Shown one piece after another: positions 6,222 to 62,019 of a DNA stretch of 64,000 nucleotides; within the stretch, counting starts at the first letter, position 1; each line of letters begins with the position of its first letter. The stretch covers positions 4,157 to 68,156 of the forward strand of contig CAYQYZ010000006.1 in the NCBI GenBank assembly GCA_964422025.1. The letters are read 5' to 3'. A program made the translations under genes and the position numbers. The notes beneath the pieces were generated by a model. It ran no database searches. It saw nothing but the letters and a program-made list of their open reading frames with translations, and was not told where the DNA came from. This DNA comes from an uncultured Gammaproteobacteria bacterium. GTDB lineage: Bacteria; Patescibacteriota; Microgenomatia; UBA1406; HO2-37-13b.

Positions 6222-6327
6222 TTGGTTTTGGCGTTGGCGCATTTTTGCGAGTTCCAATAACAATTACAATATCAACATCTTCGCCATCATCGAGCGTTGA
6301 TGTATCTACTGTATATTCACCTTCCAA
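6222..6327 (-). pseudogene. Remnant of the 3' end of a LytR_C-domain gene (paralog of 11526..12110)
   Basis: About 100 nt with roughly 75-80% identity by eye to 11630-11730. The translated fragment EGEYTVDTSTLDDGEDVDIVIVIGTRKNAPTPKPT matches ETDYTVDPAELDSSEDVDVVVIIGVRKNAPTAKPT. No N-terminal part is present, and it overlaps the stop of the FG-GAP gene. Confidence 0.55.
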
Positions 6328-12994: not shown

Positions 12995-13535
12995 AAAGAT
13001 TTCCAAAAGTGCTCGAATTCAATCTCTCCTTATTTTAACTGCAGGAGTCATCTGTTTGACTACCTTCGTAGGATATAAAATTCACCGAGCAAATCGCATG
13101 TCATTCGAACAGGTTCCACCAGTAAATACAAAAGCCAATCTTGCTCATTCTCCTGAAAGTATTGAAATAATTCCTCTGTCAATTAAACTGTCGGTCGAAC
13201 CAGCGCGAGTAGAGGGCAATAGATGGGAAATAAATGAAAAAGGCGCATCATACTTGGTATCATCCGCGCCACTGAAAGACAATGGAAATACTGTTATTTA
13301 TGCGCATAATAAAGCGACCATGTTTGGGTCACTTTCCCAGATAAAAATTGGATATCCAATAACCTTAAAAACTCGAGAAGGAAAAATTCACTCGTATTCA
13401 GTGTATAAAATTGAAACGGTAACGCCCGATAGGGTAGATGTGATTAAGTCAAACGGTGAGGAGGAACTTACACTCTATACCTGCACTGGGTTTGCAGATA
13501 CCAAGCGATTGGTCGTAAAAGCAAAGCCAATTTAA
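12978..13535 (+). CDS. Sortase family transpeptidase
   Basis: N-terminal TM anchor, His in VIYAHN, catalytic TLYTC motif, and a downstream Arg (KRLVVKA). Confidence 0.85.
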   Translation: MPKRAKKISKSARIQSLLILTAGVICLTTFVGYKIHRANRMSFEQVPPVNTKANLAHSPESIEIIPLSIKLSVEPARVEGNRWEINEKGASYLVSSAPLKDNGNTVIYAHNKATMFGSLSQIKIGYPITLKTREGKIHSYSVYKIETVTPDRVDVIKSNGEEELTLYTCTGFADTKRLVVKAKPI

Positions 13536-15649: not shown

Positions 15650-16942
15650 TTATCTATTTGGGGTAGGAATACGATTGGCCGGAGTAGGTGATGGAGTAAG
15701 TGTTGGCGTTGCTGCTTTTTCATCAGGGTCAGGGCTACAAAAGCACGTTGACTTTGTACAATCTGGTCTATCACCACACTTACCATCATTACACATCAAA
15801 CCACCAGAGCAATCCTTGTTAGTTACACATTCTTTTTTACAATCTGCTCCTCGTTTGCAACAAAACCATGTACCATCTCGTAGTTTCTGTGGGTTTGAAA
15901 CAGCAGATCGACACGATTGAATCATGCATGACTCTTTCGTTCGTGCACGAACATCGCCTGAAACACATGAGTTTGAATCTTTATATTGCCCACACAGTTC
16001 GGTACATTTACTAAAGTTGTTTTCTCCAGCTTCACCATACGTATTTAATACTTGGCACCCAGGTGGGGGCACATTAGTTATCATTACCAATGGTGGTGTT
16101 ACAACCGGCGGACATCCAGGCAAAGTGAGTTCATAAAATACTGGCGATGCGGTCGCTCCTGAATTACCACCCTGGCGATTACTTCGGTAGTTAAGATATA
16201 TAGTACACGTACTTTTTGGTACTTTTATATTGTAAATATCAAAAAAATGGGGCTGAATATTAGCACTGCTATTTTTTAGAACACCTTCATTTTCATACGG
16301 AGCTGGTGCCACCTTGCGAACACCTACGGCAGGATATCCTCCAGATTGGTCGGCACTAAATGTGCCAGGATTCTTGAATGGTGGTTCTGGTGGATATAGT
16401 TGTGCATTTCCTTTTGGAAATGTTGTTCCAACAATCTTTTTTCCTTTTGTGTCTGTTGAAGCCCATACAGTCCATAATTCACTTCCCGTACTCAGTGTTT
16501 TTGCAAAAATAATATTTCCGTGAATACTAATAGCCCCCGTATCTTCATCTTCTTCAACGCGTAGAGTGTTTTTTTCCATCATTACATTTGGTAATGATCC
16601 GTAGGGCCATTTAACGATTGCGCCCGGTGGGGTTTCGATTGATGCAGCAGCCGCTTGAGTTTCGGTCGTTTGCGCACTATTTTTCGCTTTATTTGCACCT
16701 AAAATTCCCAAAATGCTTCCCGCTAAAACTACAACAAGCGCGATTCCGAGTAATGCCCATTTTAATGGAAAAGCACTCGGTGCTGCAGGCGCAAATGAAG
16801 CAGGTCCAGTACTTAAAACTGGTTCACTTGGTGGCGTAGGTGGTTGGGGAGCTGGGGGAGGAGAGATAGGAGGAGTAACTGATGGCGGTGTTATAGGAGC
16901 AGTGCTTATTGGAGCAGTATTTTGCCCAGTAGTATCATCCAT
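15650..16942 (-). CDS. Hypothetical membrane-anchored extracytoplasmic protein (Pro-rich N-terminus, Cys-rich C-terminus)
   Basis: Pro-rich segment, one TM helix (WALLGIALVVVLAGSILGILG), and a C-terminal block with about 20 Cys that includes CVTNKDCSGGLMCNDGKCG. Confidence 0.6.
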   Translation of the reverse strand: MDDTTGQNTAPISTAPITPPSVTPPISPPPAPQPPTPPSEPVLSTGPASFAPAAPSAFPLKWALLGIALVVVLAGSILGILGANKAKNSAQTTETQAAAASIETPPGAIVKWPYGSLPNVMMEKNTLRVEEDEDTGAISIHGNIIFAKTLSTGSELWTVWASTDTKGKKIVGTTFPKGNAQLYPPEPPFKNPGTFSADQSGGYPAVGVRKVAPAPYENEGVLKNSSANIQPHFFDIYNIKVPKSTCTIYLNYRSNRQGGNSGATASPVFYELTLPGCPPVVTPPLVMITNVPPPGCQVLNTYGEAGENNFSKCTELCGQYKDSNSCVSGDVRARTKESCMIQSCRSAVSNPQKLRDGTWFCCKRGADCKKECVTNKDCSGGLMCNDGKCGDRPDCTKSTCFCSPDPDEKAATPTLTPSPTPANRIPTPNR

Positions 16943-25943: not shown

Positions 25944-26885
25944 TCATTTGTTTCCTGAATGAAATTTCTTGTGAACTTCGCGCAACCCAAAGTTTGTTAC
26001 GTGAGTGTAAATCTGAGTAGTAGCGATATTTTTATGCCCTAACATTTCTTGTACCGAGCGGATATCAGCGCCGTGTTGAAGTAAATCAGTAGCAAACGAA
26101 TGTCGCAATACATGGGGCCCTATGCGAAAGAGAATTCCCGCTAATAGTCGATACTTATCTACCAGTCGCTCAATCGAACGTGGGGTCAGACGCGATTTTT
26201 CATCGGTTAGCTCGTCACTGGCTTTAGGGCCACTGTATCGAATAAACAAGGGCTTATACGGATCATCGCGAGCTTCCATATACTGTCGCAACCTGTCAGT
26301 AGCACTGTCTGAAAGAAAAACAACTCGTGCGTGACCTCCTTTTCCAACTACGCCAAATTCACCTTCTGTTAAATTCACCATATCTCGATCAAGTCCAGCA
26401 AGCTCCGACACGCGTAAACCTGTTGAAAACAATACTTCAAGAATTGCTCTGTCGCGCAGTCCCATGGTGGTACTTACATCGGGAGCACTCAGTAATTTTC
26501 CCACTTGTTCATCGGACAAGAATTTAACGGTGCGGTCACCCATTTTTCCCAGTTCAATTTGCTCAGGGGAAAGGACCTTATGATTTTTCTTAATTAAGAA
26601 TCGGAAAAAAGACCGCAAAGCAACTAAAAAATAATTTTGTGTTTGGCGCTTCAGTTCACCTTTAAATGGGTTAAAGTATTCACGCGACAGGTACAGGCGA
26701 AATTTCCGAATCGTCTCTTCATCAATATCAGTGACATTCCATTCTTGACCATCCTTATGCATCCAATCTTGAAAGAAGCGGAGGTAATAGGAATACATCC
26801 GAACCGTTTTTTGAGAAAGATTTTTATCCAGTTCGCAATATTCCAAGAATCGATCAATTCCTTCTTTGAGCTGCATATATTTCAT
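25944..26885 (-). CDS. Tyrosine recombinase (XerC/XerD-like integrase family)
   Basis: C-terminal RHSFATDLLQHGADIRSVQEMLGHKNIATTQIYTHV (R..H-x2-R..Y) and an N-terminal SAM-like domain. The likely start is MKYMQLKEG (ATG 26885 or 26876). Confidence 0.85.
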   Translation of the reverse strand: MKYMQLKEGIDRFLEYCELDKNLSQKTVRMYSYYLRFFQDWMHKDGQEWNVTDIDEETIRKFRLYLSREYFNPFKGELKRQTQNYFLVALRSFFRFLIKKNHKVLSPEQIELGKMGDRTVKFLSDEQVGKLLSAPDVSTTMGLRDRAILEVLFSTGLRVSELAGLDRDMVNLTEGEFGVVGKGGHARVVFLSDSATDRLRQYMEARDDPYKPLFIRYSGPKASDELTDEKSRLTPRSIERLVDKYRLLAGILFRIGPHVLRHSFATDLLQHGADIRSVQEMLGHKNIATTQIYTHVTNFGLREVHKKFHSGNK

Positions 26886-26942
26886 ATTAAACGACGTGAC
26901 AAAAATAGTCAACACTTTGACAATGAGTGGTATAATGGAGGC

Positions 26943-27323
26943 ATGAAGAGGGGCGACGTGAAAAGAAATCTTTTTACCGAATTTCGGGGAACTAGTTTGT
27001 TGCAAAATTTATTAACCGCAGAAGATATATATCGGTCATTCGATCGTGGACTTGTAACTACAGACGAAGCAAGTCGACTTATTGATGAACAAGTTTTAAA
27101 TGGCGTAAGTACTCAAGATAGAATTTTGCTTGATGGTGACCCAAACGATTTTGAAAGTAACGGAACAAATGACCCCACGTTGTTGCGAATTCTCCGAAAA
27201 GAATTGACTGAAGGAATTAGTTTACGAGAGCAGGTAAGAAATTCGGCTGATGAATTCCAATTTTCACGTCTGAGTTTTGACAAAAACAACGGCAGCAGTT
27301 CTAGAAACGGAAAAGAGAGATAG
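26943..27323 (+). CDS. Hypothetical protein (126 aa)
   Basis: This is the 3' part of track ORF 26637..27323. The ATG at 26943 is preceded by TGgTATAAT (26931-26936). The upstream part of the track ORF is antisense to the recombinase. Confidence 0.45.
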   Translation: MKRGDVKRNLFTEFRGTSLLQNLLTAEDIYRSFDRGLVTTDEASRLIDEQVLNGVSTQDRILLDGDPNDFESNGTNDPTLLRILRKELTEGISLREQVRNSADEFQFSRLSFDKNNGSSSRNGKER

Positions 27324-27330
27324 GTGAATA

Positions 27331-27415
27331 GGAGAGGTCGCATAGCGGCCGAGTGCGCACGCTTGGAAAGCGTGTAAGGGTCAAACCTTCGAGGGTTCGA
27401 ATCCCTCCCTCTCCG
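27331..27415 (+). tRNA. tRNA-Ser (anticodon GGA)
   Basis: Acceptor ggagagg/cctctcc, discriminator G, anticodon stem cacgc/gcgtg with loop ttGGAaa, long variable arm, T arm gaggg-ttcgaat-ccctc. Confidence 0.85.
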
Positions 27416-27446
27416 CCCGACAGACCCACGCAATAAATACGCACAA

Positions 27447-27534
27447 GGAGAGGTCGCATAGTGGTCTAGTGCAGCGGTTTACTAAACCGCCGTATCGCAA
27501 GATACCGCGAGTTCAAATCTCGCCCTCTCCGCCA
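27447..27534 (+). tRNA. tRNA-Ser-like type II tRNA with anticodon ACU (unusual), CCA encoded
   Basis: Acceptor ggagagg/cctctcc and discriminator G are identical to the neighbouring tRNA-Ser. Anticodon stem gcggt/accgc with loop ttACTaa, variable arm gtatc-gcaa-gatac, T arm gcgag-ttcaaat-ctcgc. Confidence 0.7.
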
Positions 27535-31956: not shown

Positions 31957-33405
31957 ATGCTATACTTGAAACTTATGAAACTGGACGATGCAAAAAAAAT
32001 TGTTTTTGAAAAAAAGCCGGCATTTGCAACTCTGTATAACGAGTGGGGGAATACAACGTGGACGGAATATGCGGATAAAAATTATCCAAAAAAGGCTGTT
32101 ACCGAGCTCCCAGAAGAGTTTTTAGAGGCTTTCAGGAACGTACTAAACTCGTCGCTGGACGAATCTACGGTTACTACAGCTCTCGCCACTCTCCAAAAAA
32201 CCAACTTTGTAAGCACCGCCGATCATCATGGAATTTTGTGCCATCCTTTTTTTTCAAATAATACGATTCTGCGATCGAGTAGGGAAGACGCGGTTATTTC
32301 ACTTACCTGTGGAGGAATTTCATTAACCAATTCTTCATATCCTCGAGGAATTTTTTTCCATGATAAAAATTTGAATGAAATTCGTATGCCATTTGTTTCT
32401 CGAAAAACGGGAAATTTGCCCGTGTACGGACACGAACCGATTACAAAAAAGCAGTTGCAGAGCCACAAAAAAATGGCTCGATTTATGGACATATCAAAAC
32501 AAGCTCGCAAAAATTTGATGATTTTTTTTGATGCTCTTGTAACGGATGAAAAAATGTGGGAACTTGCTTCTCTCAGCGATCAATTCACTCGAATAAATAG
32601 TATTCTATGGCACCAGCTTTTTGGAGAAGGTAAAAATCTTATTTATGTTAGTTGTGAGGATGTGGTGAGGGAGCTACTATTGAAAATCCATTTAGTAAAA
32701 AAGACGCCGATGCACGATTTACTCTTCGACCCAAGCGTACGAGAGCGGTACATTGAGAATTTTAATGGAATAACCGGTGCCCATTCCGGGCAGGAGTACG
32801 GAACGCATTTTTTTTGGCATATTAAACATGAACATCACACGAGGGTCCCGTTATGGATACACGGAGATGAGCTCGTTTCGCCGGATAATCATGTTAAAAT
32901 CAGCTTTGATACAGGCTCTATTACCCAAGGCTTAAACCATAGAACACTCCTTCCAAGTACCGCGCTTTGTTATAGCATTCTTTCGTTTTACTATGGTCTC
33001 ACGCTCGGTGGGGGATTCTCGCAAATTCAGTACTTGGGAGAGATGAAAGAAGCATATGAAAAAACAGTACATCATCCTGAAAAGGAGTCGGATCATTCTG
33101 AGCCCTTCGATTACTCTCAGGGTAAACTCCGCGAAGGATCTCAGTCAGAGATACAAACAAACATCTTCACCGGCGAATGCGTTCAATTAGGGCTCACTGA
33201 TGGCAAAAAAACAGTACCCGCCACACTCTTTGATATACTGTTATGGAACAGGGGGGACATCACGCAACTCTATGAGAGCTTTAAGACTGCTCCTCTGCAA
33301 GCATCCCTCGACCTTATGATGCCCGAATACGTGCAAATAGTAACCGGAAAAAGACCAGTTATTTCCGATTTACCCGAAATTCCAAAAACGCTGTATGTCG
33401 ACTAA
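31957..33405 (+). CDS. Hypothetical protein (482 aa), translationally coupled to the downstream ATP-grasp gene
   Basis: Long ORF with no recognisable family. It contains an in-frame repeat-element insertion and overlaps the next gene by 11 nt. Confidence 0.6.
   Translation: MLYLKLMKLDDAKKIVFEKKPAFATLYNEWGNTTWTEYADKNYPKKAVTELPEEFLEAFRNVLNSSLDESTVTTALATLQKTNFVSTADHHGILCHPFFSNNTILRSSREDAVISLTCGGISLTNSSYPRGIFFHDKNLNEIRMPFVSRKTGNLPVYGHEPITKKQLQSHKKMARFMDISKQARKNLMIFFDALVTDEKMWELASLSDQFTRINSILWHQLFGEGKNLIYVSCEDVVRELLLKIHLVKKTPMHDLLFDPSVRERYIENFNGITGAHSGQEYGTHFFWHIKHEHHTRVPLWIHGDELVSPDNHVKISFDTGSITQGLNHRTLLPSTALCYSILSFYYGLTLGGGFSQIQYLGEMKEAYEKTVHHPEKESDHSEPFDYSQGKLREGSQSEIQTNIFTGECVQLGLTDGKKTVPATLFDILLWNRGDITQLYESFKTAPLQASLDLMMPEYVQIVTGKRPVISDLPEIPKTLYVD
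33091..33146 (+). repeat. Long variant of the hairpin repeat element, in frame in CDS 31957..33405
   Basis: gatcattctgagcccttcgattactctcagggtaaactccgcgaaggatctcagtc, translated as SDHSEPFDYSQGKLREGSQS. The ends match the short element, and the centre carries a 27-nt insert. Confidence 0.65.
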
Positions 33406-34591
33406 CAGTTGTCCTTATTGTGGAAACAATCCGGTAAACCACCGAGCTATGAAGTTGGCGGAAAGTATAGATCTGCTATTGACTCCCATGCTTTTGGGTA
33501 TGAACAGATTCCATCACCCGATTATAGATAAAGTTATTTTTACGACCATTAAACTCTCGGTTTTCCCTCTAAAATACTTGGGAGTGTGGAGTTTTCACGA
33601 GGATATTTCCAAGGCTCGTTCGGATCGTTCAAAAGTTATTTGGAACGAGGCACAAAAAAGGGGAATCCGCATGCAGGGAATTTCAGTATGGGGCAAACCA
33701 ATCGAGCAATATCGAGCCCACGTAGAAGGAAAGTGGCGCTATTTTGAAAGTCTCCCGATACCTCCTCATTACAATCAGCATACTTTTACATGGATCGACG
33801 ACAAAGCAAAACTTCGTGCATATTTACAAAAAAACAACATCTCCGTGGCGCACGGAGGATATGCAAAAACATTTAAAGAGGCAGTGCAAATCTTTAAGAC
33901 CGGGACTCCACCATTTATTGTAAAACCCCGCACCGGATCCCGCGGCCGGCATACTACAACCTATATATATACTGAAAAGGAGCTTAAGGAGGCTTTCACG
34001 ATTGCCAAACAACTTTGTTATTCCGTAATTGTCGAAGAACACTTGCAGGGAAGTGTGTATCGGGGAACATACGTAAATGGGGAAGTCGTAGGAGTGTTGC
34101 GGGGGGATGTGGCCCATATTGTAGGAGACGGAAAGAGCTCAGTAAAGGAGCTTATTTCCAAAAAAAACTCCTCTAAACACGCCCAGGTCTCAAATGTTAC
34201 CATCACTCCAAAACTCAAAGATTTTCTTGCCCGTCAAAAACTCTCACTCTCAACTGTACTAAAGAGAGGACAGAAAGTGGCGCTTTCCGAAAAAATCGGC
34301 GTTGAATACGGCGGATTTCGAGCAGAAATGCTACCTCAAACGCATCCTAAAATTCTTAAATACCTAAAAAAAGCAGGGGACAGTATCGGTTGCATAGTAG
34401 TTGGCTTTGACTTTATAATCAATGATGTAACAGCTGATCCGGATACCCAAAAATGGGGGATTATCGAAGCAAATTCGCTCCCATTTATCGATTTGCACCA
34501 TACGCCCCTTGCAGGTGCATCTATTAATGTAGCAGCAAAAATTTGGAATTTATGGACACTTCCACAACACGTCCGCCCGAAGGCGGATTAA
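33395..34591 (+). CDS. ATP-grasp domain protein (cyanophycin-synthetase-N/RimK-like ligase) with an N-terminal CxxC
   Basis: FIVKPRTGSRGRHTTTYIYTEKELKEAF...VIVEEHLQGSVYRGTYVNGEVVGVL...GIIEANSLP is typical ATP-grasp core. CPYCGN lies at the N-terminus. Confidence 0.65.
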   Translation: MSTNSCPYCGNNPVNHRAMKLAESIDLLLTPMLLGMNRFHHPIIDKVIFTTIKLSVFPLKYLGVWSFHEDISKARSDRSKVIWNEAQKRGIRMQGISVWGKPIEQYRAHVEGKWRYFESLPIPPHYNQHTFTWIDDKAKLRAYLQKNNISVAHGGYAKTFKEAVQIFKTGTPPFIVKPRTGSRGRHTTTYIYTEKELKEAFTIAKQLCYSVIVEEHLQGSVYRGTYVNGEVVGVLRGDVAHIVGDGKSSVKELISKKNSSKHAQVSNVTITPKLKDFLARQKLSLSTVLKRGQKVALSEKIGVEYGGFRAEMLPQTHPKILKYLKKAGDSIGCIVVGFDFIINDVTADPDTQKWGIIEANSLPFIDLHHTPLAGASINVAAKIWNLWTLPQHVRPKAD

Positions 34592-38640: not shown

Positions 38641-41040
38641 TTACTGAGTAGTATTCGTCAATCGTTCGTAAACAACGGACCGATCGAGCGCATTTACCTC
38701 ATTATCTTCGTCAGCAATGATATCACATAATTTGTTGCCGACCAGACAAAGTGCATAGTCGTTTGCTCGAATTTGACCATCTTTATTAATGTCAGCGGCT
38801 TTTTCGAACGATTTGGAGTCACCTAAAACTTCTTCATCCACTACTGATAAATCAAATCTGATTCCATCGTCATTAGTGGCTTTCTGCGGGCATGATAAGG
38901 ATGTTCCATCGTCATTGTTAATATCACATGTGACCATTGCCCGGTTTTGGGCTGGAACTTCTGAAGGAATTGTTTGTGAGAAACGGCCCGTTGCTCCGGG
39001 TTCAATTCTCAATGGATTATCGTACGTTTGGCAATTATCTCCATTCACATCACAGGCTTTAACCGAAACCGATTCGACTGTTTTTTCAGTCGATTGATTA
39101 GTAATGACGAATGTTGATGTAAGGGATAGGGGACCAGTACTTGCCGGTCGTCGACCTCCACGTGAGCCCGATGAACCCCGAGATCTATTACCGCTCCCAA
39201 GTGTGCCGGTTCCGCCTCGTCCACAAGCCCGATCAAAAATTTCTCCAATCGTCGCAGACACTTCTGAGATATCAATAACGTCGGTTGATACTGACTCCAT
39301 AAATTCCACATCTGAGAATAATCCCGTTTTTACAAACACACCATACGTATTGTTTTTATTTTTAGCTACTCGAGAATCAGCATTAGCATTCGCGTATGTA
39401 TTTTCAGAACAAACCGATGCACATGCATTTGTATTCAATCGCGTGTATCCATCTTTCTCATTCTGACGCGGTGCGCATCCAGCCGCTTTTTCATCGGCTT
39501 TATTTAACATATTAGGACCATCTGGGTACACACAGAACCCATTATTGTTGGCGCCTGCATAGCGAACTACCGAAGGAGTGCCATCGGAAATAAATATCGT
39601 TTTTCCCGATGTGCTTTCGAGCGCTTCTTTGATATTCGTCCAATGCAAATTGCGTACGATAGGAAATTGGAAATCTGCGGCGGTAAAGGGTCCTTTCTTA
39701 GCTTGAACATCGCGAGCAAAGAAATTTGTATAGAAATCAATATTATCTTGCGGGTTTGCGCGACCATAAATATGTACTGCATCGGTAATAGCAGTTTGGT
39801 ACTGGTTTAAAATTGCTTGCGTCGATTCAGATGCATCGATCATAAAGGTAATATCAGTACTACACGATGGGGGAGTAGGAGTTTGCGTACGACTAGGAAC
39901 ACGTGTAGGAGGCGTGGTAGGTGCACGTGTTGGCGGAACCGATGGTGCTCGTGTTGGTGGAATCGACGGTACTCGAGTTAGCACAGCAGTAGGCGCTACT
40001 GTATTTCGTGGGGTTACAATGCGCGCAATGGTTGGATCAAGTGGAATAGTAGGTTCAGGCGTCGTTAACACTCCAGGGCACGCAAGCGAAGAAGCGCCAA
40101 TCGTTGAATCGGTACGAACCGGCCTACTTTGTGCTCCTGATAAGGTGTAATATGAAAACGACACTCGGACAGGACTTCCATCTTTCAACCATGAAGGAAC
40201 ATTTCTAAAATAATAAAAATCAACTTGCGGATTCACTTTCGAATTTGGATTTGATGGATTTCCACTACGAACTTTTACATGTAATGCTCCTTTGGGAACT
40301 CCAGAAATTCCATATGTTGTCGCCGGATTCCATTCGATAAGTAAATTATCAGCCGGGTCACTTGTAGCGGGTTTCCACATACGATATTCCTGAGGAGTCG
40401 TAGGACCAGTAAATCCACTTGAAGCCGGATCTACTACATCAGCAATGCCAATATCATACGTCCCGCCAGTTCCCGATAATGTAATCTTACTTATTAACGG
40501 ATCTACCACTACCCGAAATCCAACTCCACATGCATATTGCGACGATTTAAATACTCCTTCAGCCCCACCTGTACCCGTAGAACCCGTGCGTGGAGTAGGG
40601 CGCACATACCCAGGACATTGGCGTGTATCATTTACATATTTCTGCTGGCATGAGCCCGAACTTAGGTCGCACGCAAGTGTAATTCCGGTTGCCTTATCAA
40701 TACTATTACATTGCTCATTACTCTTACAGAATTCATTACATTGCCCCAAACTATTCGGCCCCGTCGCATTACACGGCGGATTTTTAGGATCTCGAACAGC
40801 AGTACATTTACCAATCGCACGATCACAGGTAGTTTGCGTTCCGGTTGTTGTATCAGTTCCACAGTCACCATTCCCCGTACACGTTTTTCCACATAACGCA
40901 CCCGCTGCGTTGGTTCGTACATCTTGGGTTTTATTCACACCTAATCCAAAAATAGATCCAACGACCATTAGAAATAGGGAAGCGACAGTGAATGTTAAAG
41001 CAATTTCTCCACGAGTAGAATATCGGTGACGCATAACCAT
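38641..41040 (-). CDS. Membrane-anchored surface protein: Cys-rich modules, P/T linker, vWA-like domain (DASES MIDAS) and C-terminal dockerin-like repeats
   Basis: The likely start is MVMRHRYSTRGEIALT (ATG 41040), with TGTGTATAAT 6 nt upstream. Features: DITFMIDASES..ISDGTPS, then DINKDGQIRANDYALCL and DEDNEVNALDRSVVYERL. Confidence 0.65.
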   Translation of the reverse strand: MVMRHRYSTRGEIALTFTVASLFLMVVGSIFGLGVNKTQDVRTNAAGALCGKTCTGNGDCGTDTTTGTQTTCDRAIGKCTAVRDPKNPPCNATGPNSLGQCNEFCKSNEQCNSIDKATGITLACDLSSGSCQQKYVNDTRQCPGYVRPTPRTGSTGTGGAEGVFKSSQYACGVGFRVVVDPLISKITLSGTGGTYDIGIADVVDPASSGFTGPTTPQEYRMWKPATSDPADNLLIEWNPATTYGISGVPKGALHVKVRSGNPSNPNSKVNPQVDFYYFRNVPSWLKDGSPVRVSFSYYTLSGAQSRPVRTDSTIGASSLACPGVLTTPEPTIPLDPTIARIVTPRNTVAPTAVLTRVPSIPPTRAPSVPPTRAPTTPPTRVPSRTQTPTPPSCSTDITFMIDASESTQAILNQYQTAITDAVHIYGRANPQDNIDFYTNFFARDVQAKKGPFTAADFQFPIVRNLHWTNIKEALESTSGKTIFISDGTPSVVRYAGANNNGFCVYPDGPNMLNKADEKAAGCAPRQNEKDGYTRLNTNACASVCSENTYANANADSRVAKNKNNTYGVFVKTGLFSDVEFMESVSTDVIDISEVSATIGEIFDRACGRGGTGTLGSGNRSRGSSGSRGGRRPASTGPLSLTSTFVITNQSTEKTVESVSVKACDVNGDNCQTYDNPLRIEPGATGRFSQTIPSEVPAQNRAMVTCDINNDDGTSLSCPQKATNDDGIRFDLSVVDEEVLGDSKSFEKAADINKDGQIRANDYALCLVGNKLCDIIADEDNEVNALDRSVVYERLTNTTQ

Positions 41041-41056
41041 ACTATCATTATACACA

Positions 41057-43498
41057 TTATTGCGTAATTTGACCAAATCGTTCGGTGACTACCGCAAAAT
41101 CTTGAGCGTTGATTACGCCATCCAATATAATGTCATATTTTTTTGCTCCGGAAACATTTCGCTGGTTCTGCAATAGTACAAAATCAATTACATTCACACG
41201 TCCATCACCATTAAGATCAGAAGCTTGCAAAAATGTTTGCGCATTTCCGGTAACCGCTCGATTTGTCGCGGATAAATTAAATTGTACGCTCTCATTTTGT
41301 GTCTCTTTTCGAGGGCAGGGAAGGGTAGAGCCATCTGCGTAATTTACGCTACAAGTAATAAGCTCTCTACTCGAATTAGGCACATTTTCGGGAATAGATT
41401 GCGAGAATTGCGCAATCTGCTGTGGCTCCGCTTGCACCGGATTGGTAAATGTTTGACATGCCAGTCCTGATGAATTACATGTTTTAACATCAACGGATGA
41501 AATTGTTTTATTGGTTGATTTATTTTGAATCGAGAATGATGACATTGATGGTCGAGAACCTGCTTGTTGTTGAGGTGGTACTGGATGACAGGGAGCACTT
41601 GCAATGATACCATCTAGCTTGCTAAGGAATATAGCCATATTGTCGTAGATTTTATCAGGAGGTACTCCGGCCTTACCTAAGTTTAATTTTGAAATTCCTT
41701 CATTTCCTGGAAGTCGCACGGCATGGGTAGCATCCGACGAGCCGACCGGATATGGCTCCTCACATTTATCATTAAATCTGGCCCCGAACATGCGGTCCTT
41801 TTTACAATCATTCTCCTTCATGTAGTTATCATCTCGACCGGGAGTATCCCATACAGGAGTACATCCTTTCGCATTTGTGCCATCCGTATCATACACACAC
41901 TGTAATGGAGTATTGGCGGGATTATTCGCTCTGATGTTGTTAAACGGACTAAGCGCCGATGGAATTCCATCGGAGATTAAAATTTTAACGTCGTCTTTTC
42001 GCTTCATTATTACTTCGAAAGCAGCATTTAAGTTTGTCCAATTTTGATCATCAGCAAGGCTAAATTGAATGGTTTCGTTTGCTGGGCCACCTGACTGACG
42101 AGGTGCAATAATGTTGAACGTATCGTAAGAGAAAGTAACATCTTTGAATACTTTACCTGAAAAAAATCCGTTTAATGGACGCTCAATTTCCGGCTTAATA
42201 TTCTTTTGTTGTGTAGAAGATGTATCAATCATAAAATAAACCGATTTATAACAACGAGGTGGCTGCGTTACGGTCGGAGTAGCCGTTGGAGTAGCGGTTG
42301 GAGTAGGAGTTTTAGTTGCCGTTGGAGTAGCAGTTGTCGAAGGCGTAGGAGTTCCACTAGTAGTGGTGGAAGGCTTACACTCAAGTGAATCATTACCCGG
42401 CAACAAACAGTACATCTTTGGATTTGTAATTTCGCCGTACTGACGATACCTACAATTAGGCTGACCAAGCGCATGCTTTTTGCACTGTACTTCCCCAGGA
42501 ATTGTACACACTTTACCACATTCTATAGCTGGCGTAGGTGTTTGAGTTGTTGTAGGAGTTACTGTCGGAGTCACATTCGTACAAATCTTTGCACGAGCCT
42601 GTTGTGACCATTGACGTTTCTCTCCGGCAACTTTACCCTCATACGTAATGTCTACTCTATATCGTGCTGATCCAATCATCCAGTCAGGCATTTTGAAATA
42701 ATAGCTTCCCACCGTGTCCTTACCTCCACCACCACCATTTATTGTGATACGAATTTCTTTATCATTTACCGGATCAAACGAAACAAAAATTCCCGCGCTC
42801 CCACCACTTGGATAGGTAATCTGTTTCCCAATAGGACCTTCTATATTTGGCACGGCACGAAGTCTCTGGCTATTAACTGCAGTGAACACATTTGCAGGAT
42901 TGTCAGGATCAGTGATTGTTAATGAATTCAACTGTGGGTCCCAGCGAAAAGTAAATTCAACTTTACATGGTAATTCAAGAACACTAAACGCAGTACCCAC
43001 ACCTGACCCAATCGCTCCAGTTGGAGGAAGCCCGGTAACTCCGCCTTCAGCACCTCCACCTCCAGCTCCTCCAGTTCCTCCAGAACTTCCTCCGGTAGGA
43101 ACAATGCAAAATCGTTGAGGACATGCTAGGCCAGACTTACAATCAGATGCTGTAATACATGCGCCCCCTACATCTTTTTTGTCGGTTCCTCCTCCTACAC
43201 GTGCTGTAACACCCGGACAGGAGTCTTTGGCCAGTGCTGGGCGGCATTGACCCGACGCTAAATGGCACAGCACTAAAAAGCCTGCGGCCTGCGAACAATC
43301 GCTATTCTTACTACAACCCGTAGCTCCACATTGAACCCCTCCGGCGGCGCTTGTACGCACGTCCTGCGGTGTCTGGCGATTTAAGCCAATAACGGTACCA
43401 ACAAGCATGGTTATTAAGGATAAAACGGTAAGCGTAAGGGCAATCTCCCCTTGTTTTGGAGCGGATAAGATACGTTTAAAGCTTCTGGCAAAGACCAT
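41057..43498 (-). CDS. Paralogous membrane-anchored surface protein with Cys-rich modules, vWA-like domain (DTSST) and dockerin-like C-terminus
   Basis: The likely start is MVFARSFKRILSAPKQGEIALT (ATG 43498), 9 nt after TATAAT (43513-43508 on minus). Features: VYFMIDTSSTQQ..ISDGIPS, then DLNGDGRVNVIDFVLLQ and ILDGVINAQDFAVVTERF. Confidence 0.65.
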   Translation of the reverse strand: MVFARSFKRILSAPKQGEIALTLTVLSLITMLVGTVIGLNRQTPQDVRTSAAGGVQCGATGCSKNSDCSQAAGFLVLCHLASGQCRPALAKDSCPGVTARVGGGTDKKDVGGACITASDCKSGLACPQRFCIVPTGGSSGGTGGAGGGGAEGGVTGLPPTGAIGSGVGTAFSVLELPCKVEFTFRWDPQLNSLTITDPDNPANVFTAVNSQRLRAVPNIEGPIGKQITYPSGGSAGIFVSFDPVNDKEIRITINGGGGGKDTVGSYYFKMPDWMIGSARYRVDITYEGKVAGEKRQWSQQARAKICTNVTPTVTPTTTQTPTPAIECGKVCTIPGEVQCKKHALGQPNCRYRQYGEITNPKMYCLLPGNDSLECKPSTTTSGTPTPSTTATPTATKTPTPTATPTATPTVTQPPRCYKSVYFMIDTSSTQQKNIKPEIERPLNGFFSGKVFKDVTFSYDTFNIIAPRQSGGPANETIQFSLADDQNWTNLNAAFEVIMKRKDDVKILISDGIPSALSPFNNIRANNPANTPLQCVYDTDGTNAKGCTPVWDTPGRDDNYMKENDCKKDRMFGARFNDKCEEPYPVGSSDATHAVRLPGNEGISKLNLGKAGVPPDKIYDNMAIFLSKLDGIIASAPCHPVPPQQQAGSRPSMSSFSIQNKSTNKTISSVDVKTCNSSGLACQTFTNPVQAEPQQIAQFSQSIPENVPNSSRELITCSVNYADGSTLPCPRKETQNESVQFNLSATNRAVTGNAQTFLQASDLNGDGRVNVIDFVLLQNQRNVSGAKKYDIILDGVINAQDFAVVTERFGQITQ

Positions 43499-43546
43499 AT
43501 ACCTACGATTATATACATAATAGCCTATTTGTTTCAACCCGCAAAT

Positions 43547-43568
43547 TTGTGCCTATTTTGTGCCTAAA
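43547..43568 (+). repeat. Two contiguous 11-bp iterons (ttgtgcctatt ttgtgcctaaa) at the left edge of the ORF-free locus
   Basis: Read directly. They are the inverted counterpart of 44725-44757. Confidence 0.75.
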
Positions 43569-44045
43569 AATGCAAGTCCCCGACCCCAAAAAGTGCCAGG
43601 GAGCAGGGGAGTTTGGAGCATAATAAGGCTATATTAACACTTCCCCAAATGGCCTATAAAACGGATATTGACGAAATTACGCATTAATTACATAAAGGGG
43701 AAATAGGACCAAAGTAGTCAGTCGGCAGGAAGAGAAATTAATGCATTAATAACAAGAAATTAAAAAATGCCAAAAATAGCAGTTCCCCGGAAGTGATGAG
43801 TCAGAACGTCGTAAAAGATACAATTTACGACGTTGTAGATCCTTGTTTCCCTGACCATATTTTCGTCTCTAATACAAGTGGTCGGTTATGTGAATATTCC
43901 GTGATAAACGAAAAGGAGGAGGAGAATGTTGGATGTGCAAATTAGTGTTCTCTTTTAATAATTGCACTGTTCTATTATTTCGTAATAATTACGTTTTGGT
44001 GGTATTCCCTGGAACGCTATTTTGGAAGGTTTTTACACGTGTTTA

Positions 44046-44450
44046 TTTGGAGCGTTATAACGCTCCATTCTGTACTTTTTGTGCCTAATTTCGCGTATTT
44101 AGCATGTATATGGATTGATCCGATTTAGAGCGTAGTACCAGTCCGCACAGATCAATTTGTGGCTAGATTCTAGACCTCTTCACGCCTTCCGTGCATGGAT
44201 ATAGCCATCGTAAGAGCACGCACGCTCTATGTCGATTCTGGAGGGCCTTAGTTTAGAGCGCCGTATAGGTCTAATTCACTTATTTCGTGGCTAATTCTTT
44301 GCATATTCAACATCAGCATCTACATCAATTTAGAGCCTTACAATAATCTAATTCGAAGTTTTCATGCCTAATTCCGTTAGTTATGCACATTATGCATATG
44401 CACAGTTTGGAGTGTAGGACGTCGCTATTTGTGTATTGTAAGAACCACAC
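44046..44450 (+). repeat. Tandem array (~77-nt period) of bipartite units: TTTRGAGC, 27 nt variable, RTGSCTAAT-like 11-mer, ~32-nt linker
   Basis: Units start at 44046, 44124, 44252 and 44329, and the 27-nt spacing was counted in all four. Degenerate units occur at ~44211 and 44406. Confidence 0.7.
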
Positions 44451-44724
44451 TCTCAGAAACAACTTTTAAGTAATTCGCATATTTTGCACGAATTACGCAT
44501 TAATTATCAAATACTACAGGACAGTATATTGTCTTATAGTAAATTATACGGAAAACTCACGTCCGTCACTTTTACTACTCCCCTCCTCCCTACTTCATAC
44601 CTAATATCATGCATTCTAGGCACGATTTTTTTATAATTACGCACGAATTTTCTCGCTTAGAGAGTTTTTTTGGACAAATAATACATAAATTTGACCCTTA
44701 TCGTCGAATGCATTTCAGAGGTGT

Positions 44725-44757
44725 TTCAGGCACAATCTAGGCACAGATTAGGCATAA
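44725..44757 (-). repeat. Three contiguous 11-bp iterons (ttatgcctaat ctgtgcctaga ttgtgcctgaa on minus) at the right edge of the ORF-free locus
   Basis: Read directly. They abut the stop codon of 44760..45605. Confidence 0.75.
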
Positions 44758-44759
44758 AA

Positions 44760-45605
44760 TCACCACTTAACCGTAAGAAGCGTTATCACAAACACAGCAC
44801 CCAACACGAATAAATACTCTCGAATCCTCTCTCTAAACAACCGCGATGTTAAATGCGCGCTCAGTAATCCACACAAACTATAAAACAACGCTGTTACCAC
44901 CAATGAGAATACACTGGGCGTAATCGGAATAAACGAAAACACCATGACCGCCTGTGCCAAAATAACCGAAACAACCAACGCATGTTTAAATACTGATCGT
45001 TCAACATGTTCTTGCGGGTTAATCGACCACACGAAATGAAGCGCCAACGGCAACGACATAACAAAAATCAGTAACCCATTCGCCACAAACAACAAGCGCA
45101 GTGAGAATAGTAGGCTCGTCGCCAAAAACATCGTCAAAGTCAAAAACAGATAGTTAATCGAGAACGCCGCCCGAAACAATTGCAGGCTCTTCTCTACTCC
45201 CACGTTAAATATATTTTGCGACAATAATAATGCATATACTGATATCGAATACAGCACAGCAAAGGGTGCGCGGGCCAACCACCGTTGAGGTAGAAAGAAA
45301 TAGAACAAATAAAAGACAACGGAAAAATACAGCGGAGGAATAAAAAGCATCAGCCATTCTTTATCCGAAATCCCCTCAAGAATCGAAAAGTATGTTAAAA
45401 AATATACCAATACAATTATAGGAATCACAAAAAAACTAGCTGCTTCGAAACTGAAATACGTAGAAACGATCATTAACAATGTTAGAAAAAAGGTAGAAAT
45501 AATAAACCGGCGGCGTTTTTCTATGCGTATAAACAATTTGAACAAGTTCTTTGAAATATCTTTTCTTTTAAGCATAATTCGTATAGACTTTTGCAACATC
45601 ATCAA
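44760..45605 (-). CDS. Hypothetical polytopic membrane protein
   Basis: 281 aa with about 7 hydrophobic helices. The start is uncertain (45605 or 45575), and it overlaps the yebC stop. Confidence 0.5.
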   Translation of the reverse strand: MMMLQKSIRIMLKRKDISKNLFKLFIRIEKRRRFIISTFFLTLLMIVSTYFSFEAASFFVIPIIVLVYFLTYFSILEGISDKEWLMLFIPPLYFSVVFYLFYFFLPQRWLARAPFAVLYSISVYALLLSQNIFNVGVEKSLQLFRAAFSINYLFLTLTMFLATSLLFSLRLLFVANGLLIFVMSLPLALHFVWSINPQEHVERSVFKHALVVSVILAQAVMVFSFIPITPSVFSLVVTALFYSLCGLLSAHLTSRLFRERIREYLFVLGAVFVITLLTVKW

Positions 45606-51852: not shown

Positions 51853-52506
51853 TTACTTCCAGCAATTCCAGTAGCAGAATCCGACTTTTGATTTGATTGA
51901 ATTAGCAGGAACCGCTCCCCAAACCCGAGAATCAGAGCTTCGTGATCGGTTATCTCCAAGTACAAAATAATTATTGTTAGGAACTGTGTAAGCTTCACCT
52001 TCAATAATCATTGCGTCATCATACGTTGTGGTAGAAATACCTGTTAAATAAGCTGACTCATCAAGCGGCTCATCGTTCACCCATACTGCTCCTTTCTCGA
52101 TTAGCACCTTTTCATTTGGTAAGGCGATAACTCTTTTAACGAGTTCTGTGGCTGAGTCAGGAGAAGTAAAGATAACTACATCGCCACGATTAATAGGTTC
52201 TTCCTCAGATGTCACATTTGTCATATAATATTGACCGTCCATGAAGTTAGGAGTCATTGTCTCGCCTTTTATCTGAACAGGTTGAGCAACACCCACATAT
52301 GTAAGTACGCTCAGGTACGACAGAATAACAATGACAAAGGGAAGAGTGATCAGCGCCTTAATCCATGTCGGCCACTTCATCCAAAGCCACATTAAAATTA
52401 CACCAATAATGCCAGCGGCCGGCATGATAAGTGTTGCAAGAAGGAGTGCAATGATGAGAATTTGTTTATTTCTACTGGTATTAAGCGAATTCGTATTCTT
52501 TGACAT
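51853..52506 (-). CDS. lepB: Signal peptidase I (S26 family) homolog with Thr at the canonical nucleophile position
   Basis: N-terminal TM helices. Box B reads KGETMTPNF (canonical G-x-S-M-x-P-T), box D reads LVKRVIALPNEKV, and box E reads GDNRSRSSDSRVWG. Confidence 0.75.
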   Translation of the reverse strand: MSKNTNSLNTSRNKQILIIALLLATLIMPAAGIIGVILMWLWMKWPTWIKALITLPFVIVILSYLSVLTYVGVAQPVQIKGETMTPNFMDGQYYMTNVTSEEEPINRGDVVIFTSPDSATELVKRVIALPNEKVLIEKGAVWVNDEPLDESAYLTGISTTTYDDAMIIEGEAYTVPNNNYFVLGDNRSRSSDSRVWGAVPANSIKSKVGFCYWNCWK

Positions 52507-59721: not shown

Positions 59722-59862
59722 TATGTGTGGAGTTTAACAAATTGTTTTTCTGTGTCAACGGCTTATAAGTCTCATAAATGATGATTTAGATTGTCCCAAA
59801 AGCAATTTTTTACTCTTATACTACCTAAACATCTACCCCCTACTCTGATATATAATCAATAC

Positions 59863-62019
59863 ATGTCCCTTGTTCATTTGCAAGTACGCAATCCAAAAGA
59901 CGACGAAACACCCATAGAAGCGGCGAGTCAAATTTTTGCTTCACTACTTCCTTCGTACCTTCCCCCGTTTAAACGGCTCTATATTCAGCCAAAATATTAC
60001 TCTTTCGAGATTTATTTGCTTGCGCAAACTATTTATATGTACGCAACGACGAGTGAAAAGAGCGAAACGTTCGTAAAAAGCCTTATTACATCCTCATTTA
60101 CCAACTCAAAAATCATTAAAACCAAGGATCCGCTTTCGTATCTAACCAGCTCGCCGCACACGGCGCTTGGAGAAGTCGCACTCTCTTCATCCTTTTACCT
60201 GCCTATCAAAACATATTACGACTTTAAAGACGTCGATCCCCTTTCCTCAATTCTCGGATTCCTGGCACGAAGCAGCCCAAGTCAAAAAGCCGCCATTCAG
60301 ATTCTTATTACGCCTGCATCATTTGCCTGGGGAAAATCGGCTGCTGCATTTGCGCAAAAGATGAGTTACGACAAAGGAGCCGATAAGTATGGCATGAACC
60401 CGCAAAAAATGATTATTTCTCGAAAAACCGCTTTTTCAGGTGGAAAAGCTCTAATCCGCTTGCTTACTGCTGACACAACAGACGAAGGCGCAATGAGTTA
60501 CTTACACAATTTGGCCGGTACATTCGGAACGTTTTCACTGGGCGATGGTAACCAATTTAGCTTCAAAAAACGCAAAATTCTTAAAAAACAGCTGTTAAAT
60601 CGAATGGTCAACCGCACTACCTATATGCTCGAGCGTGGAGATCAGATTTTAAATGCGCAAGAATTGGCTAGCTTATGGCATCCGCCAGGAATTTTGTTGG
60701 GTGGGGTAAAAAACATTGCCTGGGGCAAAGCCCTATCCGGTGAACCGCCTGACGATTTGCCTATTTCTGATGAAATGGATGACGAGCAGAAAAAAGACAT
60801 TAATTTCTTCGGAAAAACTGAATTTAAGAATAAAGATCAAATTTTTGGCATAAAAACCGCGGACCGTCGCAAACATATGTATATTATCGGGAAAACAGGC
60901 GCAGGAAAGTCGACATTAATCGCTAATATGGCTATTGATGACATCCGTCGCGATCGTGGAATTGGCATTATTGACCCACACGGAGATTTATCGGAGATTA
61001 TTCTTGACTACATTCCTAAGCGTCGCATAAACGATGTGGTGTATTTAGAGCCATTTGATAGCGAACGTCCATTTAAATTAAATGTTCTAGAAGTTCATAA
61101 CCCTGAACAAAAACACTTAGTCGCTTCCGGAATTGTTTCTATTTTTTCCAAATTATACGGAAAAAGCTGGGGTCCACGGCTAGAATACATATTACGTAAC
61201 GTTATCTTAACTCTTTTGGAGATTCCTAACGCAACGCTCGTTGACGCCCTACGAATACTCTCAGACGACGAATATCGAGCAAAAGTAGTGCCTCAAATTA
61301 ACGACCCGGTGCTTAAAAACTTCTGGAACGCCGAATTTGCCAAAATGGGCGATAAACTGCGTGCCGAAGCCGTTTCCCCTATTCAAAACAAGGTCGGTCA
61401 GTTTGTTACATCAACAATGGTTCGAAATATCATTGGCTCTCCAAAATCATCAATTAACCTAGCAGAAATTATGGACGAAGGCAAAATCCTAATATTGAAT
61501 CTCTCTCAGGGCAAGTTAGGAGAGGATAACGCGTCTCTTCTGGGAGCGATGATTATTACTCAAATTCAGCTTGCAGCAATGGGTCGGTCGTTTAGTAAAG
61601 AAGAAGACCGTCGCGACTTTTTCTTATATGTTGATGAGTTCCAGAATTTTGCCACGAGTTCTTTCATAAAAATCCTTTCCGAGGCACGAAAATACCGATT
61701 ATCACTCACATTGGCCAATCAATATACCGAGCAACTGGAGCTTGAAATTCAACGGGCAATTTTTGGAAATGTAGGTACGCTTATGTCATTTGTTCTAGGC
61801 GCGCGCGATGCCTATTTTATGTCGAAGGAATTCGGGGAGCTTTACACGGAAGCAGATCTGGTTTCCCTGGGTAAATTCGAAACGGTCCTTAAACTATCGG
61901 TCGATAACATGACTTCCCAGCCATTTCCCGCCTACACGCTTCCCCTACCTAGCTTGAAGAACGACAATCGAGAAAAGATTATTACCACGAGTAAAGAAAA
62001 ATACGGAAGGAAGTCTTAA
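59863..62019 (+). CDS. TraD/VirD4-like (type IV secretion coupling protein / HerA-DUF87-type) P-loop NTPase with an uncharacterised ~330-aa N-terminal region
   Basis: Walker A IIGKTGAGKST, GIIDPHGDL, Walker B FLYVDEFQNF, TLANQ. ATG 59863 lies 6 nt after TATAAT (59851-59856). The track start at 59791 is a TTG. Confidence 0.6.
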   Translation: MSLVHLQVRNPKDDETPIEAASQIFASLLPSYLPPFKRLYIQPKYYSFEIYLLAQTIYMYATTSEKSETFVKSLITSSFTNSKIIKTKDPLSYLTSSPHTALGEVALSSSFYLPIKTYYDFKDVDPLSSILGFLARSSPSQKAAIQILITPASFAWGKSAAAFAQKMSYDKGADKYGMNPQKMIISRKTAFSGGKALIRLLTADTTDEGAMSYLHNLAGTFGTFSLGDGNQFSFKKRKILKKQLLNRMVNRTTYMLERGDQILNAQELASLWHPPGILLGGVKNIAWGKALSGEPPDDLPISDEMDDEQKKDINFFGKTEFKNKDQIFGIKTADRRKHMYIIGKTGAGKSTLIANMAIDDIRRDRGIGIIDPHGDLSEIILDYIPKRRINDVVYLEPFDSERPFKLNVLEVHNPEQKHLVASGIVSIFSKLYGKSWGPRLEYILRNVILTLLEIPNATLVDALRILSDDEYRAKVVPQINDPVLKNFWNAEFAKMGDKLRAEAVSPIQNKVGQFVTSTMVRNIIGSPKSSINLAEIMDEGKILILNLSQGKLGEDNASLLGAMIITQIQLAAMGRSFSKEEDRRDFFLYVDEFQNFATSSFIKILSEARKYRLSLTLANQYTEQLELEIQRAIFGNVGTLMSFVLGARDAYFMSKEFGELYTEADLVSLGKFETVLKLSVDNMTSQPFPAYTLPLPSLKNDNREKIITTSKEKYGRKS

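Follow-up and report, generated by a model that had tools for sequence, protein, structure and literature searches.

Tandem paralogous proteins with a vWA-like domain and a dockerin, candidate surface adhesins of Candidatus Roizmanbacteria

The two adjacent minus-strand genes A (41057–43498) and B (38641–41040) of the 64,000-nucleotide stretch analyzed here (the window) most probably encode, at a rough probability of 0.55, a conserved and non-redundant pair of extracytoplasmic, disulfide-stabilized surface adhesins of a Candidatus Roizmanbacteria cell. The domain identities, the conservation of the metal ion-dependent adhesion site (MIDAS), the predicted extracytoplasmic topology, and the conservation of the pair were all obtained by computation, from sequence and structure prediction. 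The organism, which a first-pass annotation made from the letters alone had taken for a putative episymbiont, belongs to the candidate phyla radiation (CPR), within Microgenomates; the named sources of the relatives of A and B are "Microgenomates group bacterium" and Candidatus Roizmanbacteria. The two proteins are laid out as follows, with confidence of the AF2 models given as pLDDT.

41057–43498, minus strand: gene A, 813 residues, ATG at 43498, stop codon at 41057–41059 (from the list of open reading frames, the MVFA starts of orthologs, and promoter geometry)
43382–43498, minus strand: leader and helix of A; basic leader (residues 1–17) ending KQG, followed by E18 and a hydrophobic helix of 21 residues with S..M..GxxxG
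43340–43381, minus strand: juxtamembrane segment of A, NRQTPQDVRTSAAG, with a conserved A-A-G where signal peptidase I might cut (the A and B groups have QDVR..AAG; distant members have AAG or AAS)
43106–43330, minus strand: Cys modules 1 (six Cys, residues 57–94) and 2 (four Cys, residues 114–131) of A; Cys columns invariant or nearly so; pLDDT about 65–84
42581–42988, minus strand: N-terminal Ig-like beta-sandwich of A, residues 171–306, all-beta, pLDDT about 90
42377–42520, minus strand: third module of A, six Cys, residues 327–374, with Pro/Thr-rich linkers on both sides (42521–42580 and 42254–42376)
41579–42253, minus strand: vWA-like domain of A, residues 416–640; MIDAS residues D425, S427, T429, T488, and D510; Cys-rich insertion after strand beta4 (from hhalign, Foldseek, and invariant columns)
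41258–41551, minus strand: second beta-sandwich of A, residues 650–747, four conserved Cys, pLDDT 78–91; it recurs directly before the dockerins of unrelated proteins
41066–41230, minus strand: dockerin of A (PF00404), residues 757–811; loop 1 (D761–D772) canonical, loop 2 (D789–D800) with Ile at position 3
38641–41040, minus strand: gene B, paralog of A, 799 residues, ATG at 41040 (from BLASTP and NCBI protein P0008)
40942–41040, minus strand: leader of B (residues 1–11) ending TRG, and helix EIALTFTVASLFLMVVGSIFGL
40615–40893, minus strand: two six-Cys modules of B, residues 50–90 and 101–142
40078–40548, minus strand: N-terminal beta-sandwich of B, residues 165–321 (from alignment with that of A), followed by a Pro/Thr-rich linker (39865–40077)
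39211–39864, minus strand: vWA-like domain of B, residues 393–610; MIDAS residues D402, S404, S406, T468, and D486
38836–39120, minus strand: second beta-sandwich of B, residues 641–735, after a Gly/Ser/Arg-rich linker
38650–38808, minus strand: atypical dockerin of B, residues 745–797; loop 1 DINKDGQIRAND; loop 2 with a two-residue insertion; Cys765/Cys772 pair; the Pfam match covers the first repeat only

The first-pass annotation had described tandem paralogs of one architecture, with Pro/Thr linkers, and both points hold. In a BLASTP comparison, the C-terminal 434 columns of A and B are 28% identical (E = 3e-37) and the N-terminal 100 residues 41% identical (E = 1e-13), a similarity far above chance. 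The order common to A, B, and their homologs starts with a basic leader ending in Gly, a Glu followed by a 21-residue hydrophobic helix, a juxtamembrane QDVR..AAG, small Cys modules, and a Gly-rich linker; then come a beta domain, a Pro/Thr-rich linker, a domain starting with C…(I/V)xFMID, a second beta domain, and the dockerin. Cysteines total 28 in A and 26 in B, both even. The boundaries given at first pass (38641–43498) are exact with the ATG starts at 43498 and 41040, which are retained because the orthologs of A begin with MVFA in the alignment, because the NCBI call for B (P0008, 799 residues, 100% identical) begins with MVMRH at the same ATG, and because the longer TTG-start frames of the mechanical list (to 41076 and 43537) overlap the promoter hexamers and were rejected. 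Two plus-strand frames inside the genes (39104–39466 and 40445–41029) were set aside as shadows of the coding strand. An origin of the pair by horizontal transfer was also rejected: its G+C fraction (0.43–0.445 vs. about 0.40) is explained by Pro and Thr codons, and the synteny is stable.

The von Willebrand factor A (vWA) domain with a MIDAS, proposed at first pass, is missed by Pfam and NCBIfam (the latter returned nothing on the whole proteins) and is backed by alignment of profiles, by the reach of the family profile, and by predicted structure. The motifs run FMIDTSST…WTN…ISDGIPS in A and FMIDASES…WTN…ISDGTPS in B. In the family, the D, T, and D-G columns of the MIDAS are invariant and the S/T positions conserved at ≥90%, and the residues of A and B align to the MIDAS of the VWA profile and of VWA2 (5a8j). 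A linker-free alignment of the vWA and second sandwich region (A2) was used in an exhaustive hmmsearch of 1.84 billion representatives, where it reached, with profile positions 2–116, four proteins outside the family (E = 1.6e-4 to 5.5e-4) that Pfam reads as VIT plus VWA, with 72–79 bits on PF00092. Between A2 and an alignment of these four VIT-VWA proteins, hhalign gave 96.8% probability (E = 2.3e-10) over 107 columns, superposing D-x-S-x-S, the T of GGTN, and the D of TDG. One family member, P0033, scores 22.9 bits on PF00092, just under the cut-off of 23.8. The AF2 model of residues 416–747 of A (mean pLDDT 72.6) has an alpha/beta Rossmann-like fold in its vWA region, and its best Foldseek match is VWA2 (5a8j, E = 3.3e-5, probability 0.99), followed by the pilus adhesin SpaC (6m3y, 1.2e-4) and integrin beta3; vWA proteins occupy ranks 1, 2, 3, 6, and 15 (among them also the inter-alpha-inhibitor heavy chain ITIH1 and ANTXR2). 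An insertion with conserved Cys follows strand beta4 of the domain.

At the C-terminus, Dockerin_1 (PF00404) is the sole Pfam match in either protein, above its gathering score of 22.9 in both A (32.7 bits, profile positions 2–55 of 57) and B (26.6 bits, positions 14–51), and the family profile matches solved PDB dockerins at E = 1e-4 to 1e-3, so that the dockerin assignment of the first pass stands. The pairing of calcium-binding segments proposed with it stands in part. A canonical dockerin loop has 12 residues with ligands at positions 1, 3, 5, 9, and 12; loop 1 of A (DLNGDGRVNVID) is of this kind, whereas loop 2 is degenerate, with Ile at ligand position 3 in A (DIILDGVINAQD) and, in B (DIIADEDNEVNALD), a two-residue insertion common to the B group. 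Loop 1 of B has Arg at position 9. A hydrophobic residue (Ile or Val) at position 3 of loop 2 is found in nearly the whole family. Most dockerin members have an intradomain Cys pair, one Cys in helix 1 and the other just before loop 2; window A does not. No cohesin (PF00963) was found in the 42 open reading frames of the window, as the first pass had noted, and none appears in the precomputed Pfam annotation of the syntenic loci L001, L003, L004, and L005/L006.

Both examples of a Cys module listed at first pass, CTGNGDCGTD…C and CSKNSDCSQAAG…C, are present. The six-Cys modules are spaced C-x3-4-C-x5-C-x9-12-C-x6-C-x8-10-C and the four-Cys module C-x5-C-x5-C-x4-C; the third six-Cys module of A is absent from the B of the window and present in its ortholog P0013. 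The beta-rich domain reported earlier is likewise there, modeled at pLDDT of about 80–90. With the N-terminal ectodomain of A, a sequence profile search of the PDB returned noise only (XPB, E = 0.4), and Foldseek with the N-terminal sandwich found generic Ig-like domains only (best E = 0.015); the Cys knots and the first sandwich remain unclassified. The second sandwich resembles generic Ig-like and carbohydrate-binding-module-like sandwiches only. A cohesin-like identity of either sandwich was rejected, with no cohesin in the top 50 PDB fold matches. A further Cys module, CVTNKDCSGGLMCNDGKC, lies about 50 residues ahead of the C-terminus of the protein at 15650–16942, where the first pass had seen a similar one, and shares the C-x5-C-x5-C-x4-C spacing with CITASDCKSGLACPQRFC of A. 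This minus-strand gene encodes 430 residues without a Pfam match; the N-terminal tail is rich in Pro, TQAAAAS comes after the single membrane helix, and the C-terminal region has 18 Cys and includes the module shared with A.

The N-terminal motif (K/R)GEIALT of the first pass is found in both proteins, as (K/R/Q)GEIALT followed by a hydrophobic helix of 21–22 residues. In 25 of 27 vWA-family members, a leader of 5–27 residues ends in an invariant G, followed by an acidic residue (E or D; the G and E of A are the invariant pair) and 21–22 hydrophobic residues; the helix face S10-M14-G17xxxG21 is conserved within the vWA family. The acidic residue is thus at +1 after the Gly, and +5 is T, F, or L. 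The conserved A-A-G sits 13–14 residues past the helix, ahead of the first Cys knot, and obeys the −3/−1 rule; it recurs (also as A-x-A or A-A-S) in distant and in non-vWA members. The positive-inside charge of the leader, the single helix, and the even Cys counts predict an extracytoplasmic location for A and B. Of the three readings of this N-terminus, a signal anchor ranks above a long cleavable signal peptide, and this above a prepilin-like class III signal. The signal anchor is favored by the length of the helix and by comparison with ordinary secreted proteins in the window, whose signal peptides are much shorter (25–32 residues, with c-regions of 5–8 residues). Sortase anchoring was rejected: the C-termini are dockerins, and the only LPxTG is an internal, non-conserved LPPTG in the Gly-rich linker of A (residues 157–161, region 43028–43042), without a hydrophobic tail and taken as chance.

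The family is small, lineage-restricted, and previously unannotated beyond "dockerin". Against 5.8 billion clusters, two word-indexed searches yielded 7 and 8 matches; the exhaustive search gave 46 at E ≤ 1e-3 and 29 at E ≤ 1e-10, and a third homolog search with the linker-free vWA and sandwich alignment found only a partial self-match, P0001. The tandem pair occurs at six independent loci (the window, L001, L003, L004, L005/L006, and L009). Three of these, L001, L003, and L005/L006, share with the window the order YebC, DUF5656, a gap of about 1.2 kb free of open reading frames, the pair, Dus, cupredoxin, and P-type ATPase, the gap being partly occupied in L003 by an ADI-type gene. L004 and L009 keep the pair and the upstream gap; L004, which ends with the pair, also keeps the upstream flank and has the B-like gene first. 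Identity is 41–71% within each orthologous group vs. 28% from A to B, so the duplication is old and both copies have been kept. The L008/L001 sequence (CAYPSA010000003.1, GCA_964413645.1) is labeled Gammaproteobacteria; its gene order and proteins fit the Roizmanbacteria loci, and the label is probably a taxonomic error.

Taken as adhesins, A and B could work as follows. The helix would export the chain with the N-terminus in and the C-terminus out and would most likely stay as a membrane tether, while the knots, the Ig-like sandwich, and the Pro/Thr linkers would form a stalk that keeps the head off the cell. In both proteins, this head is a constant C-terminal unit of the vWA-like domain with a complete MIDAS, the beta-sandwich, and the dockerin. 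Its MIDAS would hold Mg2+ or Mn2+, an acidic residue of a protein ligand completing the coordination, and the Cys-rich insertion beside it may shape specificity. Such acidic-ligand coordination is the mode of integrin I-domains and of the pilus adhesins SpaC, RrgA, and PilB. The sandwich–dockerin dyad may act as a Ca2+-dependent protein–protein plug for a receptor in the envelope of the same cell or on a different one. From the helix face S10-M14-G17xxxG21 and the invariable tandem, A and B (or copies of the same protein) might associate via their membrane helices. The adhesion function, the ligand, the dockerin partner, any association of A with B, and any role in episymbiosis are what we infer. 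Precedents exist for both modules: vWA modules with a MIDAS are proven adhesins on pili (PMC8179133), and a dockerin-domain envelope protein is essential for the epibiotic growth of a Saccharibacterium (PMC10633639).

Both ends of A and B also recur on other cargoes, and this shared frame is their most original aspect. In the exhaustive search, the sandwich part of the A2 profile also matches proteins without a vWA domain; in P0036, P0037, P0039, P0043, and P0050, the sandwich stands directly before a C-terminal Dockerin_1. Five of the six full-length non-vWA carriers start with the G-E motif (…SGE(I/V)… in P0037, P0050, and P0054, …KGEIATLL… in P0038, and …SGEIATTL… in P0046). That the dyad and the N-terminal G-E frame unrelated passengers suggests, at the level of sequence, a shared display frame, the co-occurrence of both ends on different cargoes being the behavior of export or anchoring signals. 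A bolder version, which we put forward only tentatively and would not bet on, is an undescribed, Microgenomates-specific surface-display system made of the (K/R/Q/S)-G-E-(I/V/L) helix and the Cys-bearing sandwich–dockerin dyad. One end would be a processing or targeting signal and the other a Ca-dependent plug for a non-cohesin or highly divergent receptor (on the own envelope or on a host cell), with interchangeable passengers of which the A/B vWA pair would be the conserved core cargo.

Several observations weigh against the reading as tethered adhesins. The 42 open reading frames of the window include no cohesin match. No vWA family matched either protein at E ≤ 1 in Pfam or NCBIfam, none of PF00092, PF13519, and PF13768 rose above its gathering score, and among PDB sequences the family profile matched VWA2 (5a8j) alone, below significance (E = 1.7). 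The alignment to known vWA domains covers just the N-terminal half of the region; the model has medium confidence, with Foldseek TM-scores of 0.26–0.29, which are low because two domains were searched together. Loop 2 of the dockerin lacks its position-3 ligand and is interrupted in B. The A-A-G after the helix and the invariant G-E before it leave N-terminal processing possible, and two of the alternatives start there. In one, the N-terminus is a long cleavable Sec signal peptide cut at A-A-G, with G-E as a targeting motif, and the mature protein is held only through the sandwich–dockerin dyad in a surface receptor, as in cellulosomes. YSIRK-G/S is a targeting motif of this sort in Gram-positive signal peptides. 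The A-A-G (A-x-A, A-A-S), in keeping with the −3/−1 rule, is retained before the first Cys knot even in non-vWA proteins; cellulosomal proteins usually anchor through a C-terminal dockerin; the G-E motif and the dyad frame unrelated passengers like sorting signals; and a type I signal peptidase is encoded at 51853–52506. However, the site lies 13–14 residues past a hydrophobic stretch of 21–22 residues, implying a "signal peptide" of 47–53 residues, far from the 25–32 residues and short c-regions seen elsewhere in the window, and no cohesin was found in the window. We regard this secreted form as unlikely.

Still less probable is a modular type IV pilin-like protein, in which a prepilin-type peptidase would cut after the invariant Gly and the helix would insert into a type IV filament presenting the vWA head, as in PilB of S. 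sanguinis. The layout in the 25 members is that of class III signals, a hydrophilic or basic leader of 5–27 residues ending in Gly before about 21 hydrophobic residues (as defined in PMC8179133); a pilin carrying a vWA module is already known, modular pilins are found among the CPR (PMC8179133), and type IV pilus genes are near-universal there (bioRxiv 10.64898/2026.03.03.709456). Against this, the acidic residue is at +1 and not at the +5 of the Glu in type IV pilins, and the prepilin cleavage and methylation models (N_methyl/TIGR02532) match neither the whole proteins at E ≤ 1 nor ten isolated N-termini at E ≤ 10, so prepilin membership was rejected on profile and Glu position; Cys knots and no globular pilin module follow the helix, and neither pilus machinery nor a prepilin peptidase was found in the window or the syntenic loci. 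To a similarly low degree we credit the view that A and B are not adhesins at all, being instead structural envelope or scaffold parts (e.g., S-layer-associated spacers) or a metal-sensing receptor pair whose vWA domain binds a small ligand or a partner in cis. Domains of the vWA type do act in complex assembly and regulation, the top fold match (5a8j) being the regulator paralog VWA2; the neighbors cupredoxin, P-type ATPase, and FTR1 are metal-related; and the conserved GxxxG face suggests signaling-type helix packing. The cytoplasmic part, however, is a leader of only 11–17 residues, with nothing to signal with; the synteny with metal genes is merely positional, across opposite strands; and a stalk with a distal MIDAS head and a flanking insertion is the architecture of an adhesin.

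The reading of A and B as surface adhesins can be set beside known systems. Like SpaC of Lactobacillus rhamnosus, RrgA of S. pneumoniae, and PilB of S. sanguinis, they combine a surface vWA domain with a complete MIDAS, insertions by the metal site, and beta-sandwiches in the chain, and PilB provides a case of MIDAS-dependent protein binding in bacteria (PMC8179133); the Cys insertion recalls the MIDAS "arms" of these three adhesins (PMC8179133). Unlike them, A and B have neither an LPXTG sorting signal nor a class III profile match, isopeptide-type pilin domains were not detected in them, they end in a dockerin and have a disulfide-rich vWA insertion, and the vWA similarity is limited to about 107 columns. 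Their C-terminal duplicated F-hand of about 55 residues after an Ig-like sandwich, a dyad carried by varied passengers, resembles cellulosomal type I dockerins and X-module–dockerin dyads (CelS and the CipA XDoc of C. thermocellum), and vWA and dockerin domains co-occur in the clostridial scaffoldins ScaO and ScaP (PMC6780208). The differences are the lack of a cohesin and of a glycoside hydrolase context, the family-wide hydrophobic position 3 of loop 2 with the insertion in B, the intradomain Cys pair of most family members, and, for the second sandwich of A, the absence of any solved X-module or cohesin among the top 50 fold matches.

With integrins, A and B share a MIDAS vWA domain with a disulfide-bonded insertion (that recalls the specificity loop of the beta subunits), Cys knots (cf. 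PSI and I-EGF), a single-pass GxxxG helix, and paired products, with beta3 as the third fold match and two FG-GAP (integrin-alpha-like) proteins encoded 30 kb away. The helix is, however, N-terminal (a reversed topology), there is no cytoplasmic tail, homology is limited to the vWA core, and the paralogs are not alpha and beta subunits; the resemblance is best taken as an analogy only. SEML1_0315 of Southlakia epibionticum (Saccharibacteria) is, like A and B, a CPR surface protein with a dockerin, compared here by description; it belongs to another CPR class, and a vWA domain is not reported for it. It is essential in transposon sequencing (Tn-seq), and host adhesion or glycan targeting has been proposed (PMC10633639).

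The upstream region of the two genes contains the following sites.

43508–43537, minus strand: promoter-like site of A, TTGAAA-18-TATAAT, ending 9 nucleotides (nt) before its ATG (11 of 12 matches, best in the region)
41047–41075, minus strand: promoter-like site of B, TGGTCA-17-TATAAT, ending 6 nt before its ATG
43549–43566, minus strand: tandem pair of TAGGCACAAA boxes immediately before the −35 hexamer of A, kept in L001 and L005

These are the two best minus-strand sigma-70-like promoters, and no Shine–Dalgarno sequence precedes A or B. The −10 box and the spacing are conserved in L001, L005, and L003, while L004 and L009 have a GGAGG leader instead. Leaderless expression, proposed at first pass, is plausible on these sequence features. 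A repeat block in front of gene A had also been noted, and TAGGCAC is indeed enriched there: five of its ten sites in the window fall within the 1.2-kb gap, and none of 100 shuffles reaches ten window-wide. Relatives have this gap (43538–44760, minus orientation) at the same place, with the DUF5656 gene on one side and gene A on the other, and its sequence is conserved as well: 1210 nt align to L005/L006 at 76.7% identity and 1123 nt to L001 at 75%; a patch at nt 167–264 is 92% identical to L003 and 84% to L004. This conservation is comparable to that of the flanking proteins (56–71% amino-acid identity). Repeats of AATTACGCATTAATTA are enriched in the gap together with TAGGCAC, and Rfam found nothing there, at gathering scores or at E ≤ 1. 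Probably the gap holds a non-coding RNA, a dense regulatory region, or both.

Elsewhere in the window, 30 kb from A and B, two adjacent minus-strand genes (6317–8785 and 8820–11456) encode proteins of 822 and 878 residues that have FG-GAP (integrin-alpha-type) repeats and signal peptides of the ordinary kind. These two are further candidates for a surface or adhesion role. The plus-strand genes 12281–12994 and 12978–13535 comprise one for a secreted protein of 237 residues and, overlapping its end, one for a sortase. The secreted protein has a C-terminus that reads …LAATG, a hydrophobic stretch, and KKS; with this LAxTG-type sorting signal, the two look like a sortase–substrate pair. The plus-strand genes 31957–33405 and 33395–34591 encode proteins of 482 and 398 residues without a Pfam match that are kept beside the P-type ATPase in L001, L003, and L005. 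A tyrosine recombinase lies beside two tRNA-Ser genes, with a TrwB/VirD4-type coupling ATPase farther on (25944–27005, 27331–27534, and 59791–62019); recombinase and ATPase may belong to mobile or type IV secretion functions or be left over from them.

Members of the CPR (Patescibacteria) are thought to live attached to other cells, and to our knowledge the contact molecules are known only for a few Saccharibacteria. By themselves, A and B are the kind of protein expected in such an organism and introduce no new principle, being a variant of the vWA adhesin or of the dockerin-bearing surface protein. They are a concrete, conserved contact candidate in another class, Microgenomatia, with metal sites that can be point-mutated, dockerins without a visible cohesin, and a frame that recurs on other cargoes; current annotation misses the pair and calls only "dockerin". 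As such, they would offer testable starting points in the search for the receptor of Roizmanbacteria, perhaps even for their host, and in work on the roles of dockerins outside cellulosomes.

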